A DNA stretch of 64,000 bases, from the NCBI RefSeq assembly GCF_963921235.1, contig NC_086108.1, forward strand, positions 73,286,001 through 73,350,000, given 5' to 3'. Of this stretch, positions 22,906 through 62,275 are shown piece after piece. Under the pieces are notes generated by a model. That model did not search any database, was not told where the DNA came from, and saw only the letters and a list, made by a program, of their open reading frames with translations. The translations under genes and the position numbers were made by a program. Each line of letters starts with the position of its first letter. Within the stretch, counting starts at the first letter, position 1. The stretch comes from Mobula hypostoma. Taxonomy: Eukaryota.

Positions 22906-23307
22906 GATGGAATAAGTTATCCTGACAGCCAGAAGGATGATGAAAATGTTCTTCCACAAGATTAATGTTCATTGTTATTTGTACTAGCCAGTACAAAAAC
23001 AAATGGAAAAAACAGGCAAAATAATGTTAAGACAAACAAACACACAGAGCTGCTGTAATGTGTTGCTGCCTTGTACAGCACAGGGAGAAGGAAGGAGATT
23101 GGGGCTGAGAGGAAAATTGGATCAGCCATGATGAAATGGTGGAGTAGACTCGATGGGCCAAATAGCTTAATTCTGCTCCCATATCTTATGATATAATAAA
23201 AACACAAAGCACAACGCATTTCTGAAACACAAAACATAAAGGGCAAAGGATTTTGAAAACACCAGTACAGTACCTATAAGCTAAAAAGGCATACCATGAA
23301 GCAAACA

Positions 23308-23617
23308 CGAGGAATTCTGCAGATGCTGGAAATTCAAGCAACACACATCAAAGTTGCCGGTGAACGCAGCAGGCCAGGCAGCACCTCTAGGAAGAGGTAC
23401 AGTCGACGTTTCAGGCCGAGACTCTTTGTCAGAACTAACTGAAGAAAGAGCTAGTAAGAGATTTAGAAGTGGGAGGGGGAGGGGGAGATCCAAATCTCTT
23501 GCTAGCTCTTTCTTCAGTTAGTCCTGACTAAGGGTCTCGGCCTGAAACATCGACTGTACCTCTTCCTAGAGATGCTGCCTGGCTTGCTGCATTCACCAGC
23601 AACTTTGATGTTTGTTG
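23308..23617. mobile_element. Inverted pair of Penelope pLTR fragments with 17-bp flanking duplication
   Basis: 23340-23460 and 23495-23617 are reverse complements. ATACCATGAAGCAAACA occurs at 23291-23307 and 23618-23634. Confidence 0.85.
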
Positions 23618-23639
23618 ATACCATGAAGCAAACAAGTTT

Positions 23640-25440
23640 TCCAACACAGAAGCCGAAGATGGAGGAATGGATAATAGTTCACCCCATGTCCTTTCCATGT
23701 TTACTCTTGATATTCCTTAACCCATTCCTAATAAGCCTGAATTATTCTCTACATTCATAACCTTTTCTCCATTTGGGTGACTTCACATCCATATTGTATT
23801 TCTTCAGATAGCCTTTCAATAGCAACCTACTGACCTAGAACAGTGAATATCCATCACACACTCCTCTTGCTAAGTGAAGATTTTTAACCCAGCTCCTTCC
23901 TATGGATATCAGCTTCAAAATCAAGACTCCTCTTGAGAACAGAATGTTACTCCTCCATTAGTTCCAGTAGGTTACCAGTGCTAGAAAGGATATCTTCACT
24001 CCGATGCTCAAAGCACTCATTGGGCAATTCTCAACTTCAGGGTTTCGGTGAGATTTTCTCTTTAGACTATTCAGTTCCTCAATCTTAGCTGCACACATTT
24101 CCCAAGCCTCAAACAATTGTCATGATTATAATTTTCCACAAGCATGCAGCAACAATGCATGATAATCTATTTTATAAGTCCATATTACTCCATATTTAAA
24201 ATCTTCTTCCCCACAAACAGTTCTTGCCATTTCCTTGATACAAGTTCACATCACTGCCTCTGTTGCCATTTGTTCATCAGGTCAGCTGGAAATGTCCCTC
24301 AATAAGCTGAAGATAGTTCATCCCTTTCACAGGGGTATTCACTTTGCTTTCAATGCGGTGCACCACTTTGATCAGTTTTTCTGAAAACGGGTCACTGGTC
24401 ATGTACTGCTGTCTTCTTTTGCCTAAAGATTAGTAATCTCACGTTTTAGTTAAGGAAAATCGTAAGCATTAGTCACATGATTTCTCAGTATAATACTATA
24501 CATAAAAGATGAAACGTTTACAAAATAAGGAAGAGTACAGTTCTCCTGTTGAGGATTCTGTCTATACCTTTAATTCTAAACTCCCAGAAAAAAACTGTCA
24601 AAACATAGAAATTGGCTACACTCTGTCTCTCCATTGGGAGTGAGCACTCATTAATATGCTGTAACTTAACATTCTGAAACCAGCTATACCATCTGCATAA
24701 GTTCTCTGTCATTTTTGCGATTCCAGACTCTGTATAATTGTTCAGGTTTCCCCCCTTTACTTTGTTAAGGATTGGGCCTAAATAAGAAGAATTTGACACA
24801 TCTTCTCAAGCTTTGTGTTTTCCCAGAAAACTTTAACTGATCAAGGGCTACTCAGTCTGTTCTGACAAACCATGGGATTTTATTAATCAAATGTACAAAT
24901 TATTCCAGTAATATTAAATATAACACAAACAGCAATATTAATAGACATAGTGGTCTTACTTGTTGCATTGTAGAAGTATCATATATGCAATATATGCTTA
25001 CACCAAAATAATAAACAAATAGCAAACACATTGAAGTAGTCAAAGTCCTTATAGTCGTCAAAGACTCTGGGATTGCATCACCATTTCCAAAGAAATCATA
25101 ACAGAATAGGCAGAAAGGTTATCTGGAGTATAGCATTCCTCAGGAGTAACTATCTCTCTCCTCCTTGTAAGCCTTTCCTTAGTGTATAAAATAATACACA
25201 AAACATATTAAGGCAAATAGTTTTAAAAGTCAAAGGTGTAAACCATGATAGTATAATGCCATCAGAAGCAATGAACAACACACTTACAAAGCAAACTATA
25301 TAAAATCTTAAGGACCACATACTGTATATAAAAAGTTTCCCATCAGAAAGTAAATATGTAATGTTCAAGTAGGTAAGTGAAAAATAATGTTTGTTGACAC
25401 ATCTTTCTGTGGAATTGTCTTATTAGAACAATTGTTCGCA
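23640..25440 (-). pseudogene. Putative accessory-gene region of the endogenous foamy-like virus (decayed ORFs, one strongly hydrophobic)
   Basis: Unique, non-repeat-like sequence downstream of env on the same strand. ORFs 25150-25368 and 24518-24799 plus stop-interrupted frames at about 23990-24420. No homologue recognised. Confidence 0.45.
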
Positions 25441-26040
25441 ATAGCTATATTCTAACCCCCTCAAGATGAGTAGACAATATTAGCGATCAGGGCTAGGAAA
25501 AGGAGAGGAGCAAGGGTAACATGATCAGGGCAGTCCCTGATCTTCACTATTCCAGGGTTGAGGATAGAACAGAGGAATATGTAAAGAGGAGAGTACAGGG
25601 AAGCATGTAGCAAAGCAAACATACGAGAACCTACCCACAGTAGTGCAGGTTAGGTATGGGAGTTACCGAGTCTTGGGGTGGAGCAAAAAGCGGAAGTCAG
25701 AATTCCATCCTTACAGGTTTCAACTTCTCAGCAGAAAGAACAATACAAAAGCAATAATTCCAATGGCTCTGGGTGTTGTCCATTAGAACTCTGCAAAAAA
25801 ATGTCATCTAATTTAAAGTAATGCCAATCTACCTGGAAATCTATTCACTGCTGTGGAAGCTAAGTTTGCAGCAGTTGGAAAGGACTTATTTCTGCCAGAG
25901 TGTTAAGGTAGTCAGGGGCTTAGTATGAGTCTGCAAAGGAAGCTTGTTTAAAAAAAGGTGCTTCACTCATCTAATTATGTCAAGCTTTTACTCGTAATGT
26001 GTAAAAAAAATTCTCTTAATTTGACTGCTAGCCGTTGTTC

Positions 26041-26226
26041 AAAGTTCAAAGTTCAAAGTAAATTTATTATCAAAGTATATATGTCTCCATATACAACCCA
26101 GAGATTCATTTTCTTGTGCGCATACTCAATAAATCAATAATCGAATCAATGAATGACTACACCAACTTAAGCATTCATCCATTGTGAGAAAGACAACAAA
26201 CATGTACAAAAAGAAAGAAACAATAA

Positions 26227-26273
<47 letters not shown>

Positions 26274-26624
26274 GCAATAAATATTGAGAACATGAGATGA
26301 AGAATCCTTGAAAATGAATCCATAGGTTTGAGAACTTTTCAGTAATGGGGCAAGTGAAGTTGGATGACGTTGTCCCCTTTGGTTCAAGAGCCTAATAGTT
26401 GAGGGATAATAACTGCTCCTGATCCTAGTGGTGCGAGTCGCAGGCTCCAGTGTGAGGCTCCTGTACTTTCTTCCTGATAACAGCTGCGAGAAGAGAGCAC
26501 GTCCTGGATGGTGGAGGTCTCTGATGATAGATGCTGCCTTCCTGCAACAATATTTTGTGTAGGTATGCTCAATTGTGGGGAGGGAGGGCTTTACCAGTGA
26601 TCGACTGGGCCACATCCACTACTC
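26041..26624 (-). mobile_element. Rex1/Babar-type LINE 3' end inserted in the viral env
   Basis: CCRKAASIIRDLHHPGRALFSQLLSGRKYRS, (TTTA)n and a (TTTGAAC)n tail. Confidence 0.88.
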
Positions 26625-26654
26625 CATTGTTGGCAAATATCAGGTCTTCTAGAG

Positions 26655-26734
26655 CAGGGGTTCCCAATGTTTTTTATGCTATGGACCCTTACGATTAACC
26701 AAGGCGTCTGTGGACGCCAGGTTGGGAACCCCTG
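26655..26734. mobile_element. hAT-type MITE
   Basis: TIR CAGGGGTTCCCAA / TTGGGAACCCCTG. 8-bp TSD TTCTAGAG / TTCTAAAG. Confidence 0.85.
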
Positions 26735-28296
26735 TTCTAAAGCACTCTTTGTTATATTGATCATAAATTGTTCCTTAAAATTGGGCTTACATTTGTCTTG
26801 AGAGATGCAAAAAAGATTAAATCGTCAAATTACACCAAGAGTAACTTCCTCTATAAATCTTAAAATTTGAGTGATCCTCCAATAACAGGATCACATCAGT
26901 GGTATTATAAGAGTGAGCATTGTCAAGGCATGTATGTACAGCTAGTTTTACTCCAATATCTTTTTTTAAATATCTTGATAATAGTTTAGGCTGAATCAAT
27001 TTTTTCTCTCTGCCTGTTGAAGGCAACACCATGCGACTGAATCCACAGCAATAACAGAAGACTTGTCTATGTATGTAACACTGTCTATTTGAGAAGTAAT
27101 GGTATCAATGTAACCCCAATGTTTAGTATCATTAGATGGACTCTAACAGCAGAATTTGTCATACACTTGTTTTTCAACTTGAAGTTGAAGTCTATGTGAA
27201 ATATAATTGAATTCATAACAACACCAATAGTTCTAAAGTAATTTTCATTGTAATGTATTATTCATACTATAACACAGATTATTCATAACTATTTGATTAA
27301 GGACAAATAAGAAATCTGGATAGATACAATAGTCAATGGGACTTAACTGTTTCAGTTGACTAGGGAGGAAAGCATTTTTGTTTTATCTTAGCTTCTGTTT
27401 CAGTGCATCATTCCGCCTTACCTTCCCAGACAAAATCCAGGGTCAAGAGCTCACTGAACCATTTCGAGCATAACCCAGAAATACAGAAAATTGTCATGTT
27501 ACCTTGACATCTAACAATGGAGTGGAATAGAAGCCTTAGTTGGAGAAATGGAAATATCTAAAATCTTTGTAGTAGTATGTTTTACATACTTGGTAGCCAT
27601 AAAGGGAAAGTGCAATAAGATTTCCTTCTAATGGAGAGCTTTAATGATTTCAATATAATGTTTCTAGGAGTGGGATCATTCAATGACATAACAATGTCTA
27701 TACTTTTCTTCAAGTATAGAGGGATCAATTAGTTCTATCAGTTTACTTCCAATATCTGCGCTGGAGTCCTTCAGTTTTGTTGGGGTATTATTAATAATTT
27801 CTGCAAGTGATTCTTTGCTTTCCCATGTATCTATGTTTATTTCATCTACAATGTAATCAGAGTGAATGTTTAAGTGGATCGGAACCATCACTTTGCCAGG
27901 GGCAAGAATTAAGTGTTCCAGTATATTAGTTCACATATGACCAAAAGGTAAGGGCCATTTAGAGATATTTAAATTAGTATTATCATTGCTCACAGATCCC
28001 CTTAATCTAATTTTCTCTGAGTCATTAAGCTTCAGGGATGTCTGAGCCAGATGAGACAATTTCCATAGTAAATGTGACTTTGTGAAAAAAACAAATGGTA
28101 AGGCAAAAGTGGAAAAAAATAACATTATTAATAAGAACAAATATTAAAAGTAAAGTACAGCAAAAGAAACATTTCTTCCTGAAGTCTGAGTTTGTCTTAC
28201 TCTGTAAACACCGATGTGTCTTAGGTTTATTATCTCTGCTCAAGTGAACGGGAGCTTTTTCATTGCTTTTCAGATCTAAACATCTGTTTTATCTTT

Positions 28297-28890
28297 TCAA
28301 TACATTTCACCCCCTGGTGGACCCATGTATCGGTCTAATATAAAGGCTCCACACTTTCTGGGCTTGATGTTATCTATGGAGACAGCTTTACTTGTAGTCA
28401 GGTTTCACCTCCCAGTCTTGATTACCACAATCCTGTCATTGATAACCTGGGTAATAAGACAAAAAGGTATCCATCTAGGATGGAAAGAAGGGTCAGAATT
28501 ATTTTTATGTAATTCCCTTTCTTGGAATTTGTCCCCTTTTTGTGATCTGAAAGCTGTCTTGTCAGGTTCTTTTGCTTTCTCTTGAATTCCCATAAACTCT
28601 CTCAATTCCTTGAGGAGAGCTCTATCAAGTCTAGGCGATGGTTGGCCTGAGTTATCAATCAGATGTGTATTTAGGTGGACATTGTACATTAAGAAATAAG
28701 GTGTAACATTCTTGTGTACTCCTATTTTAGCAAATAGGCACTTTGTTTACCAAGGGTTGCACTTCAGGGACAAGTGTAGCCTAATTTGCCTCTAGAGTAG
28801 AACAGTTTTTCCAAGCCTTGTATAATCTCTCGATTCTTTCATTCCACCATGCCGCTAGATTGCAACTGGAATGCAGTGCTGTACTCCAAT
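28297..28890 (-). pseudogene. pol: Foamy-virus-like pol (integrase catalytic-core end and C-terminal domain), decayed
   Basis: WSTALH..QSSGMVE*KNREIIQGLEKL..TLVPEVQPLVN..VTPYFLMYNVHLNT..LLKELRE..KGDKFQERE..PSFHPRW..ITQVINDRIVVIKTGR*NLTTSKAVSIDNIKP. This parallels prototype foamy virus IN (recalled): STPYHPQS..VERKNSDI..TPHQLLFG..VGQLVQERV..LRPRW..VLNPRTVVI..TVSIDNLKP. Confidence 0.88.
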
Positions 28891-29127
28891 TATTTGTCTG
28901 TTTACTCCAAGGTTTTCAGAGCACCTGTATTGGTTTATTGTTGTTTAATGAGCATTATTAATTGTTTAGAATTCCTTCTATTTCTCTCTCTTTGTAACAT
29001 GATCTCCTGATGCTTTCTGTTTAAACTTGTTAAGTTTATTTTAATAGGCTCAGGATTCTGTGTTACTTTTATTATTTAAGCAGACGTCCAATTATTTTTG
29101 AGTATGTTACGTCTCGTGGAGTTGTAA

Positions 29128-60664: not shown

Positions 60665-61961
60665 GTTCAGAATCAGAATCAGAATCCTTTATTAGTCATA
60701 GTCATAGTCATACTTTATTGATCCTGGGGGAAATTGGTTTTCGTTACAGTTGCACCATAAATAATTAAATAGTAATAAAACCATAAATAGTTAAATAGTA
60801 ATATGTAAATTATGCCAGGAAATAAGTCCAGGACCAGCCTATTGGCTCAGGGTGTCTGACCCTCCAAGGGAGGAGTTGTAAAGTTTGATGGCCACAGGCA
60901 GGAATGACTTCCACCAAGTATGTGGACACATACAGGGAACTTGATGCCGGTTTCCCTGAGCTCTCGCTGTACAGAATCAAAAAGCAAACAAAACAATAGT
61001 GCAAATAATCGTGAACTATATACAATGAGGTATACCTGTGTATGTACAGGTGGACTTGGTTTATAATAGATTAAAATTCAAGTGTTCATAAGACTGATGG
61101 CATACGGAAAGAAACTGTTCTTGTACCTATTTGTCCTGGTATACAGTGATCTAAAGCGCCTACCAGAAGGAAGGAGTTGGAACAGGTGATGCCCAGGGTG
61201 TGATGGGTCTACAATGATGCTGCTTGCTCACTTCCTGACTCTAGATACATATAAGTCCTGGACCGAGGGCAGCTTCACACCAATAATTCTTTCCACAGCC
61301 CTGATGGTTCTTTGGAGTCTATTCTTGTCTTGTTTGGTAGCTGATCCAAACCAGACGGTGATGGACGAACAGAGAACAGACTGGATTATTCCTGAATAGA
61401 ATTGAATCAGCAGCTCCTGAGGCAGATTGTACTTCCTGAGTTGACGTAGGAAATACAACCTCTGCTGAGCCTTTTTGATAAGAGTGTCCGTGTTGGGTGT
61501 CCACTTCAGATCCTGGGAGATTGTGACACCCAGAAACCTGAAGGTCTCCACAGCAGACACAATACTGTTGAGTATAGTGAGTGGGGGGAGCACTGGGGGG
61601 CTTCTCCTGAAGTCCACTATCATCTCCACAGTCTTGAGCGTATTTAGCTCCAGATCGTTCTGACCACACCAGCGGGCCAGCCGTTCCACTGCCCGTCTGT
61701 ATGCAGACTCATCACCGTCTCGGATAAGGCCAATGACAGTTGTGTCGTCTGCAAACTTCAGGAGTTTAACAGATGGATCCTGTGAGGTGCAATCATTAGT
61801 GTAAAGGGACAAGAGCAGTGGGGAGAGCACACATCCCTGGGGGGCACCAGTACTGATTGTCTGGGTGCTAGAAATGATGCTCCCCAGCCTCACTTGCTGC
61901 ACTCTGTCAGTCAGGAAGCTTGTGATCCACTGACAGAAGGCGGGGGAGACAGTGAGCTGGG
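60665..61961 (-). mobile_element. Rex1/Babar-type LINE 3' part, relatively young (open RT frame)
   Basis: ORF 61228-62010 contains [56 protein letters not shown]. Tail is (ATTCTG)n. Confidence 0.92.
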
Positions 61962-62275
61962 ACGATTGTGCTCGCCCTGACTTCCCACATACTGCAAGCG
62001 GAGCACTCAACTGCCCTAACTGCTGCCTAATCCATTACCTACTCTTAAGGTAATTAGATTTATTAAAGGAACTTACCAGGCCTTACCTCACTTGGAGTGA
62101 AGTTCTTCCTCAGCTTCTGCTCGCCGAAGCCTCAGGAGCCAAAGCCTTCCTACTCTGTCTCCCTCTACTCCATCACCCGCTCCGTTAATCTTCTCGCTTT
62201 TAAACACTCCCGCTGCCTCACGGTCCGACTTACATGCGTTTGCGCAGTCGTGCCCCGTTCAACCGCCGAAGAAGA
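61962..62275 (-). mobile_element. CR1 5' UTR and ORF1 start
   Basis: Minus-strand frame AVRAVECSACSMWEVRASTIVP is homologous to the CR1 ORF1 starts at about 31200 and 42865. Confidence 0.7.

Follow-up and report, generated by a model that had tools for sequence, protein, structure and literature searches.

On the minus strand of a 64,000-nt window of Mobula hypostoma contig NC_086108.1 (the window being the whole stretch of DNA analyzed, to which all positions refer), positions 23204-28903 were confirmed to hold what remains of an endogenous foamy virus, namely its 3′ half, which is dead. The remnant comprises, in this order, the end of the integrase, env, about 1.85 kb of unassigned sequence, a polypurine tract and a broken 3′ long terminal repeat (LTR), and it is interrupted by younger repeats. 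It shows no sign of present function. With a probability of about 85%, we consider it a 5′-truncated dead copy of an old foamy virus family whose founder carried a deletion in env and which spread in the germ line in a helper-dependent burst. An earlier interpretation made from the letters alone (the sequence-only reading) had recognized a foamy-type endogenous retrovirus with a pol end and env, and in this respect it stood; its claim of rarity and possible novelty was not supported. That reading did not include the copy number and LTRs of the family, the shortening of env or the deletions common to several copies.

Integrase, reverse transcriptase and placement of the element

The motifs QSSGMVE (28862-28842), TPYFLMY (28704-28684), QERE (28524-28513), PSFHPRW (28491-28471), VINDRIVVI (28446-28420) and AVSIDNIKP (28386-28360) were located on the minus strand where the sequence-only reading had placed them. 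The block is AT-rich, as had been noted (63-65% AT compared to 59% for the window), and its viral part indeed contains no open reading frame of at least 120 codons. The integrase frame matched Pfam SH3_11 with an E-value of 8e-4 and 20 bits, which is below the cut-off of 25 bits, and its best matches in the PDB were to prototype foamy virus integrase (E 0.0056). A translation of the window integrase with X set at two frameshifts and one stop scored 37-51 bits against 15 foamy and foamy-like Pol proteins, whereas no other protein of the set exceeded 12.6 bits. In a quick integrase tree of 38 rows, the piece was placed with foamy viruses (SH-aLRT 99). Scores and tree agree with the foamy-type integrase end proposed from the letters; the integrase did not group with Gypsy elements, and the region downstream of it showed similarity to a foamy Env profile. 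When the decayed integrase and reverse transcriptase (RT) were used as queries in word-indexed homolog searches, zero and one hits were obtained, respectively, and these were of no use.

The RT tree rests on seven other copies of the family, the window itself having no RT, and the frames used for the trees were guided by simian foamy Pol. Compared with PDB entries, the RT of copy L044 scored 115-119 bits against foamy Pol, 38 bits against Ty3 and 22-26 bits against murine leukemia virus. Among 1.84 billion representatives, its top three matches were feline foamy Pol, a gene model of the catshark Scyliorhinus torazame and an unnamed Gag-Pol protein (P0004), all at 113-118 bits, with the next best at 82 bits. 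For phylogenetic analysis, a quick tree of 72 rows came first; the careful tree retained 34 of these rows, after removal of 35 references, which in most cases were Gypsy-type or orthoretrovirus-like, and of three unrelated loci from this genome. The seven copies formed a clade with support of 100/99, which together with the catshark and P0004 rows reached 95/93, the S. torazame row being the sister of the family at 90/53. This group was joined with the true foamy viruses and two Pleurodeles-type rows at 90/83, within a wider clade supported by 100/98. Approximately unbiased (AU) tests rejected placement of the copies with Gypsy rows (p-AU 6e-5), with orthoretrovirus-like rows (p 8e-5) and with teleost, unnamed and Callorhinchus rows (p 0.0024). 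In the RT and integrase trees, the family is placed next to the true foamy viruses, together with the catshark element.

Other retroviral loci of the genome were encountered in the course of this analysis. L053 (G000:C63:37880393) and L055 (G000:C64:7792600) represent other retroviral RT families and fall with the orthoretrovirus-like rows, L055 next to a frog element; several loci of these RT families have few or no stops. L054 (G000:C66:53877424) and about 25 similar loci form a young Gypsy-type family with open frames of up to about 1330 codons. The S. torazame gene model P0003 has a foamy-like RT fused to a PR-domain protein and is probably an artefact of gene prediction, a chimera spanning an intronic provirus.

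The env gene and its short form

The sequence-only reading had seen an Env-like frame directly after pol, and profile matches showed that a foamy-related env is present there. A genome-wide scan with Foamy_virus_ENV (PF03408) yielded five weak matches (best E 0.0145), four of which lie in copies of the family, at the same position. We then used a profile built from six exogenous foamy Env proteins, which was run on 1770 pieces from 20 loci. It gave 12 matches of at least 5 bits, all in sense orientation, and 11 of them map in order onto env; a reversed-profile control in the same run gave zero matches. At the membrane end, Env columns 929-991 are anchored weakly (4-9 bits) at about 25919. The Env similarity is weak but colinear and controlled. 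The predicted structure of a 120-residue env piece had a mean pLDDT of 40 and was unusable. One weak Foamy_virus_ENV match outside the family (L032, G000:C55:30670919; E 0.4) stands alone, has no DNA similarity to the copies and probably arose by chance.

Over the first approximately 410 residues, the spacing of the matches corresponds to that of foamy Env. The interval between columns 418 and 929 comprises 498-504 residues in all six viruses, whereas in the family it has 218-242 codons in four insert-free copies and 170 in a fifth. These five belong to a set of 12 copies examined, of which three others have transposons in the interval and four lack a landmark. Consequently, env is about 270 codons shorter than mammalian foamy Env in all copies measured. 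The centre of the short form was spanned in one piece by 40 of 40 scored loci and its wider part by 30 of the 40; these loci had been selected as the top-scoring of 291 candidates with a query of the short form, so that the count is biased. If cleavage takes place at the basic site near 27008, a putative cleavage site, the receptor-binding part would lack about 85 residues and the transmembrane ectodomain about 190. The latter shortfall is close to the distance between HRA and HRB in foamy Env, where these segments have been reported at residues 651 and 845 (PMC11468914). A deletion in the founder is the simpler reading of the short env. Seven copies contain extra env sequence, which was considered as the missing part and rejected since it neither matches between copies nor recurs at a homologous site; five of the seven sequences match other repeats or sit at different places.

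Most bins of the stretch between env and the LTR keep one frame that is poor in shared stops, and no match to Pfam, Tas or Bet was found in it. This suggests, without proving it, that the stretch once held accessory genes that have since been lost. A search for an internal promoter revealed only TATA-like words common to four of nine copies near 26850 and to three of eight near 25330.

Family copies, shared deletions and age

When the genome to which the window belongs (3.48 Gb, 200 contigs) was searched at the DNA level, as already suggested in the sequence-only reading, many copies of the family were found; the block had been described there as non-repeat-like, but it is a member of a multi-copy family. 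Query 26750-29120 gave 69 matches from the best 40 of 1902 candidates and query 23630-26040 gave 70 matches from the best 40 of 1480 candidates, in both cases mostly at 70-80% identity. With a short env query, 151 matches were obtained from the best 150 of 346 candidates, some loci being listed twice; this query was in a non-coding frame and is usable as a copy count only. A query from the transmembrane region had 291 candidates. The floor is about 140 copies, and about 300 are likely. Three copies on one contig (G000:C91:46942199, 48065247 and 45071954) are 93-98% identical in part, which suggests segmental duplication or conversion after insertion. A second copy lies about 70 kb before the start of the window on the same contig (G000:C50:73214792-73215409).

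Every copy examined is broken. Combined, they give a layout of LTR, tRNA-Lys-type primer site, a stretch at the position of gag, protease, RT, tether and RNase H, integrase, foamy-type env, the 1.85-kb stretch, polypurine tract and LTR. A protease with a DTG motif was found in three of 11 stretches scanned, and the catalytic RT motif YIDD in one of six copies, the other five having decayed forms. A degenerate tether, an RNase H and both the zinc and the core domain of the integrase are also present in other copies. Two RNase H domains, PF17917 (E 0.03) and PF00075 (E 1.7e-5), were detected on copies L027 and L025, colinear with foamy Pol; a degenerate tether plus a second RNase H distinguishes Retroviridae from most Ty3/Gypsy elements. 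The top six loci among 28 matches to PF18103 are all family copies, each above the cut-off. RT, tether, RNase H and integrase are 31-38% identical to simian foamy Pol.

The LTRs are about 1.2 kb long, have 8-nt inverted ends and occur in pairs in other copies. The sequence at the LTR start in the window, which follows the polypurine tract, also opens the 5′ LTRs of three copies, and the polypurine tract is present in the window and two copies. In the single copy for which the 5′ LTR end was recovered, the primer site begins two letters after it, and 13 of its first 15 letters are identical to the tRNA-Lys site printed for a stork element (PMC6955096).

Spumaretrovirinae express Pol from its own spliced RNA and reverse transcribe late. 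In four of six RT-bearing copies, the protease is fused to the first part of gag, always at one and the same breakpoint, which has short microhomology and no GT-AG. An origin of this junction from spliced pol RNA was rejected on these two grounds. In one copy, the protease and most of the RT are missing, as seen directly, and the same gap is implied by the coordinates of five more. Since the breakpoints are common to several copies, defective genomes must have been copied, in agreement with complementation in trans in the sense of PMC8922424.

Kimura two-parameter (K2P) distances among eight copies were 0.19-0.27 with a mean of 0.23 (28 pairs), and their tree was nearly star-like. Differences were even over codon positions, and in-frame dN/dS values of integrase and env (0.58-0.99) were no lower than those of off-frame controls (0.58-0.88). 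These three properties indicate that the copies were nearly identical at insertion and then decayed neutrally. Paired LTRs were separated by a K2P distance of 0.149 over 582 sites in one copy, and of 0.17-0.25 in a second one. With rates of 2.2e-9 for mammals and 2.2e-10 as assumed for sharks (PMC4422223), the LTR pairs bracket the age between 34 and 340 million years, the upper end of which seems too old.

The sequence-only reading had also proposed a search for orthologous insertions. Contigs from four other organisms (four runs of the 24 listed) span the locus-specific junction at 28904, with differences in 5/334, 17/336, 18/299 and 47/503 letters. Insertion and truncation are therefore older than the separation from these organisms. 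The elasmobranch-like host proposed earlier is consistent with our data, as exons of a catshark PR-domain gene match the genome at 73-87%.

Based on these observations, the following course of events can be proposed. A foamy virus would have entered the germ line of a cartilaginous fish, and a single early burst of copying would then have distributed nearly identical genomes over a few hundred sites. The short env most likely was a deletion in the founder genome that rendered the founder non-infectious. Copying most likely took place inside germ cells, by retrotransposition and by helper proteins acting in trans, given that groups of copies have the gag or the protease-RT deletion in common and could not have copied themselves. 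After the burst, the 5′ half of the copy in the window would have been lost and four younger repeats would have inserted into the remainder, before its host split from at least four other species.

The features of the locus are listed in Table 1. Homology to other copies breaks off at 28902-28907, where those copies continue into pol. The element thus stops at 28903 and not at 29125, the end given in the sequence-only reading, and a different high-copy repeat (about 28905-29095) follows. On the other side, the 3′ LTR extends beyond the earlier limit of 23640, from 23858 to about 23204. Of two insertions that had been marked for excision, 26041-26624 was correct, whereas the second ends at 26734 rather than 26742. 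A CR1 element had rightly been seen at about 29128; it does not abut the provirus directly, since the high-copy repeat lies between them.

Table 1. Features of the proviral remnant and of the repeats inserted in or adjoining it.
Feature	Position	Strand	Remarks
pol 3′ part (integrase core end and C-terminal SH3-like domain)	28297..28903	-	stops and frameshifts; cut at 28903 on 5′ side
env 5′ part	26735..28310	-	hydrophobic leader region, surface-subunit start, lower receptor-binding region, transmembrane-subunit start
env basic site (putative cleavage site)	near 27008	-	within env 5′ part
env profile matches, copies mapped on window	28308-28170, 28065-27667, 27503-27236	-	colinear with foamy Env profile
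small insert (putative hAT-type miniature inverted-repeat transposable element)	26655..26734	.	terminal inverted repeats, 8-nt target duplication; copy homology resumes at 26735
high-copy repeat insert with TAAA run	26041..26624	.	missing at same place in other copies
env 3′ end: membrane-proximal stretch and hydrophobic anchor	25700..26027	-	weak profile match at ~25919 and hydrophobic run
env-to-LTR stretch, ~1.85 kb	23876..25699	-	common to family; place expected for accessory genes
polypurine tract	23859..23875	-	immediately before 3′ LTR
3′ LTR	23204..23858	-	~480 nt lost near 23826; far end missing; matches 5′ and 3′ LTRs of other copies
repeat inside LTR	~23297-23620	.	inverted pair at 23339-23617; 129-nt arms, 91%; very abundant element; ~16-nt duplication flanks
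unrelated high-copy repeat at provirus cut	28905..29095	.	best 40 of 1481 candidates scored, 75-83% identity
CR1-type long interspersed nuclear element (LINE) piece	from ~29128	.	RT-like LINE frames

The lost gag-pol part and 5′ LTR were sought elsewhere in the window and not found, and no tRNA genes were detected in it. None of 14 window open reading frames scanned gave a match to a host protein-coding gene. Positions 621-1118 and 61228-62034 contain LINE-type RT fragments.

Alternative readings and known foamy-type elements

Several results count against the interpretation given above. The window's own frames had no Pfam Foamy_virus_ENV match, only one of four copies scanned, L009, reached this family (E 2.4e-6), and PDB searches with two single env pieces did not retrieve foamy Env. 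The anchor on the transmembrane side scored 9.2 bits, a value equalled by the reversed control in another block, and the 40 loci spanning the short form are a biased sample, as stated above. A foamy Gag profile reached at best 3.9 bits and a foamy protease profile 5.7 bits, the latter on the right motif, both without a Pfam match in the copies, which are decayed; fish elements have likewise been reported without Gag similarity (PMC10699275). The branch joining the family to the true foamy viruses (90/83) is below the starred level, and the trees were built without coelacanth, named fish foamy-like endogenous retrovirus (FLERV), named lokiretrovirus or cartilaginous fish endogenous foamy virus (CFEFV) sequences. 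No target-site duplication was recovered, as no copy yielded both outer LTR ends.

The short env could also be natural, i.e., a compact Env with a smaller receptor-binding part and an ectodomain of about 150 residues, in which case the copies would have arisen by reinfection and the defective genomes would have been packaged by an infectious helper. The short form occurs in every copy measured and its centre in all loci scored, and one candidate longer copy held just a transposon. Moreover, the shortfall seems to be split in two, provided that the putative cleavage site is correct, and a single deletion would not explain a shortfall in two places. On the other hand, the missing length corresponds to the HRA-HRB stretch, which builds domains whose N-terminal parts remain here, no purifying selection on env was apparent between copies, and other genes of the family also have shared deletions. 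We therefore regard a natural compact Env as unlikely, while granting it a small share of the probability. Slightly more doubtful still is a chondrichthyan foamy lineage distinct from the published CFEFVs with a compact working Env of about 700 compared to 985 residues. If this were true, the compact Env would represent a second foamy Env architecture, located basally in the subfamily, with implications for the origin of the paramyxovirus-F-like fold of foamy Env.

A lokiretrovirus or a foamy-like element of the ray-finned fish type, rather than a lineage beside the true foamy viruses, might account for the DTG protease motif and the absence of Gag similarity to mammalian foamy viruses; in addition, the labels of the reference rows for these groups are uncertain, and the catshark element ERV-Spuma.0-Sca has been reported with ray-finned fish FLERVs (PMC10699275). 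This is improbable in view of the AU test against the teleost, unnamed and Callorhinchus rows and of the Env matches to Foamy_virus_ENV. Lokiretrovirus Env resembles the paramyxovirus F family (PMC7947760), and PF00523 was not hit in the window and four copies, although decayed frames limit the sensitivity of this search. Furthermore, env follows directly after the integrase, without the acc3 and acc4 genes of AciFLERV (PMC5512871). Retention of the copy, or of its env, in the service of the host is very improbable. The insertion is common to four other organisms and co-opted foamy env genes have been reported in geckos (PMC6669660), but stops and frameshifts occur in all frames, two repeats lie inside env, the viral part lacks any longer frame, and the differences of 1.5-9% between orthologs look like ordinary drift. 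Gypsy elements are abundant in the genome (long-frame RT matches, one of them among the Gypsy-type rows), and the env frames of the window lack a Pfam match, yet a Ty3/Gypsy fragment followed by unrelated DNA has a next to negligible chance: the downstream region accompanies the integrase in other copies, the tether and RNase H are present, and this reading was refuted by the Env profile run, the integrase scores and tree and the AU test.

Foamy-type elements are reportedly known from rays as well. The study that named CFEFV is said to have found these elements in both sharks and rays, with several lineages in S. torazame and a basal position relative to vertebrate foamy viruses. The name was given by Wang, Chen, and Cui (2023, J Virol 97:e01816-22; PMC9972966), and with a complete catshark element, ERV-Spuma.0-Sca, also in print (PMC10699275), the claim of a rare and possibly undescribed lineage made in the sequence-only reading is not supported. 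By its title, the CFEFV study concerns the same kind of host and element, and its content may already cover the family described here. Our literature search, the scope of which did not extend to Wang, Chen, and Cui (2023), found no description of a ray element. The kind of element is already known from sharks; two features of the family merit attention, the short env found in every copy measured and the deletion classes that depend on helpers. Among named proteins, that of S. torazame is nearest in the tree, the RT of which is just 30-39% identical to the family. ERV-Spuma.0-Sca and CmiFLERV of Callorhinchus milii are, like the family, foamy-like endogenous elements of cartilaginous fish. For CmiFLERV, only pol is reported as detected (PMC5512871); the C. 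milii row in our RT tree, whose identity with CmiFLERV is unconfirmed, lies outside the family clade.

The family shares with the mammalian foamy viruses (prototype, simian, feline, bovine and equine foamy virus; PFV, SFV, FFV, BFV, EFV) the RT, tether, RNase H, SH3_11 integrase and an env directly after the integrase. It likewise has a tRNA-Lys-type primer site, and its LTR length is within the range of 950-1700 nt (PMC6955096). It differs from them by the shorter env, the DTG protease motif, the presence of at least about 140 copies and the lack of detectable Gag, Tas or Bet similarity. The closest unnamed relative of the family is P0004, a Gag-Pol protein of 1687 residues, which falls into the family clade in both trees (95/93 for RT; SH-aLRT 84 for integrase). 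P0004 has a DTG-type protease, which matches the ordinary retroviral protease family, and an SH3_11 domain like the family, whereas its one continuous Gag-Pol frame and its Gag, which has no similarity to the family, set it apart. Among viral contigs, none was found that matches the P0004 patterns.

Foamy viruses serve as the principal model in the dating of retroviruses, and among jawed hosts cartilaginous fish branch deepest. With its env, LTRs and primer site, and with an insertion common to several species, the family can be dated and compared; for the ghost shark, only pol has been reported (PMC5512871). The family is also an example of a foamy element that multiplied to a few hundred copies via defective, helper-dependent forms. 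Endogenous foamy viruses of mammals are few. The short env, if natural, would change the picture of Env evolution.

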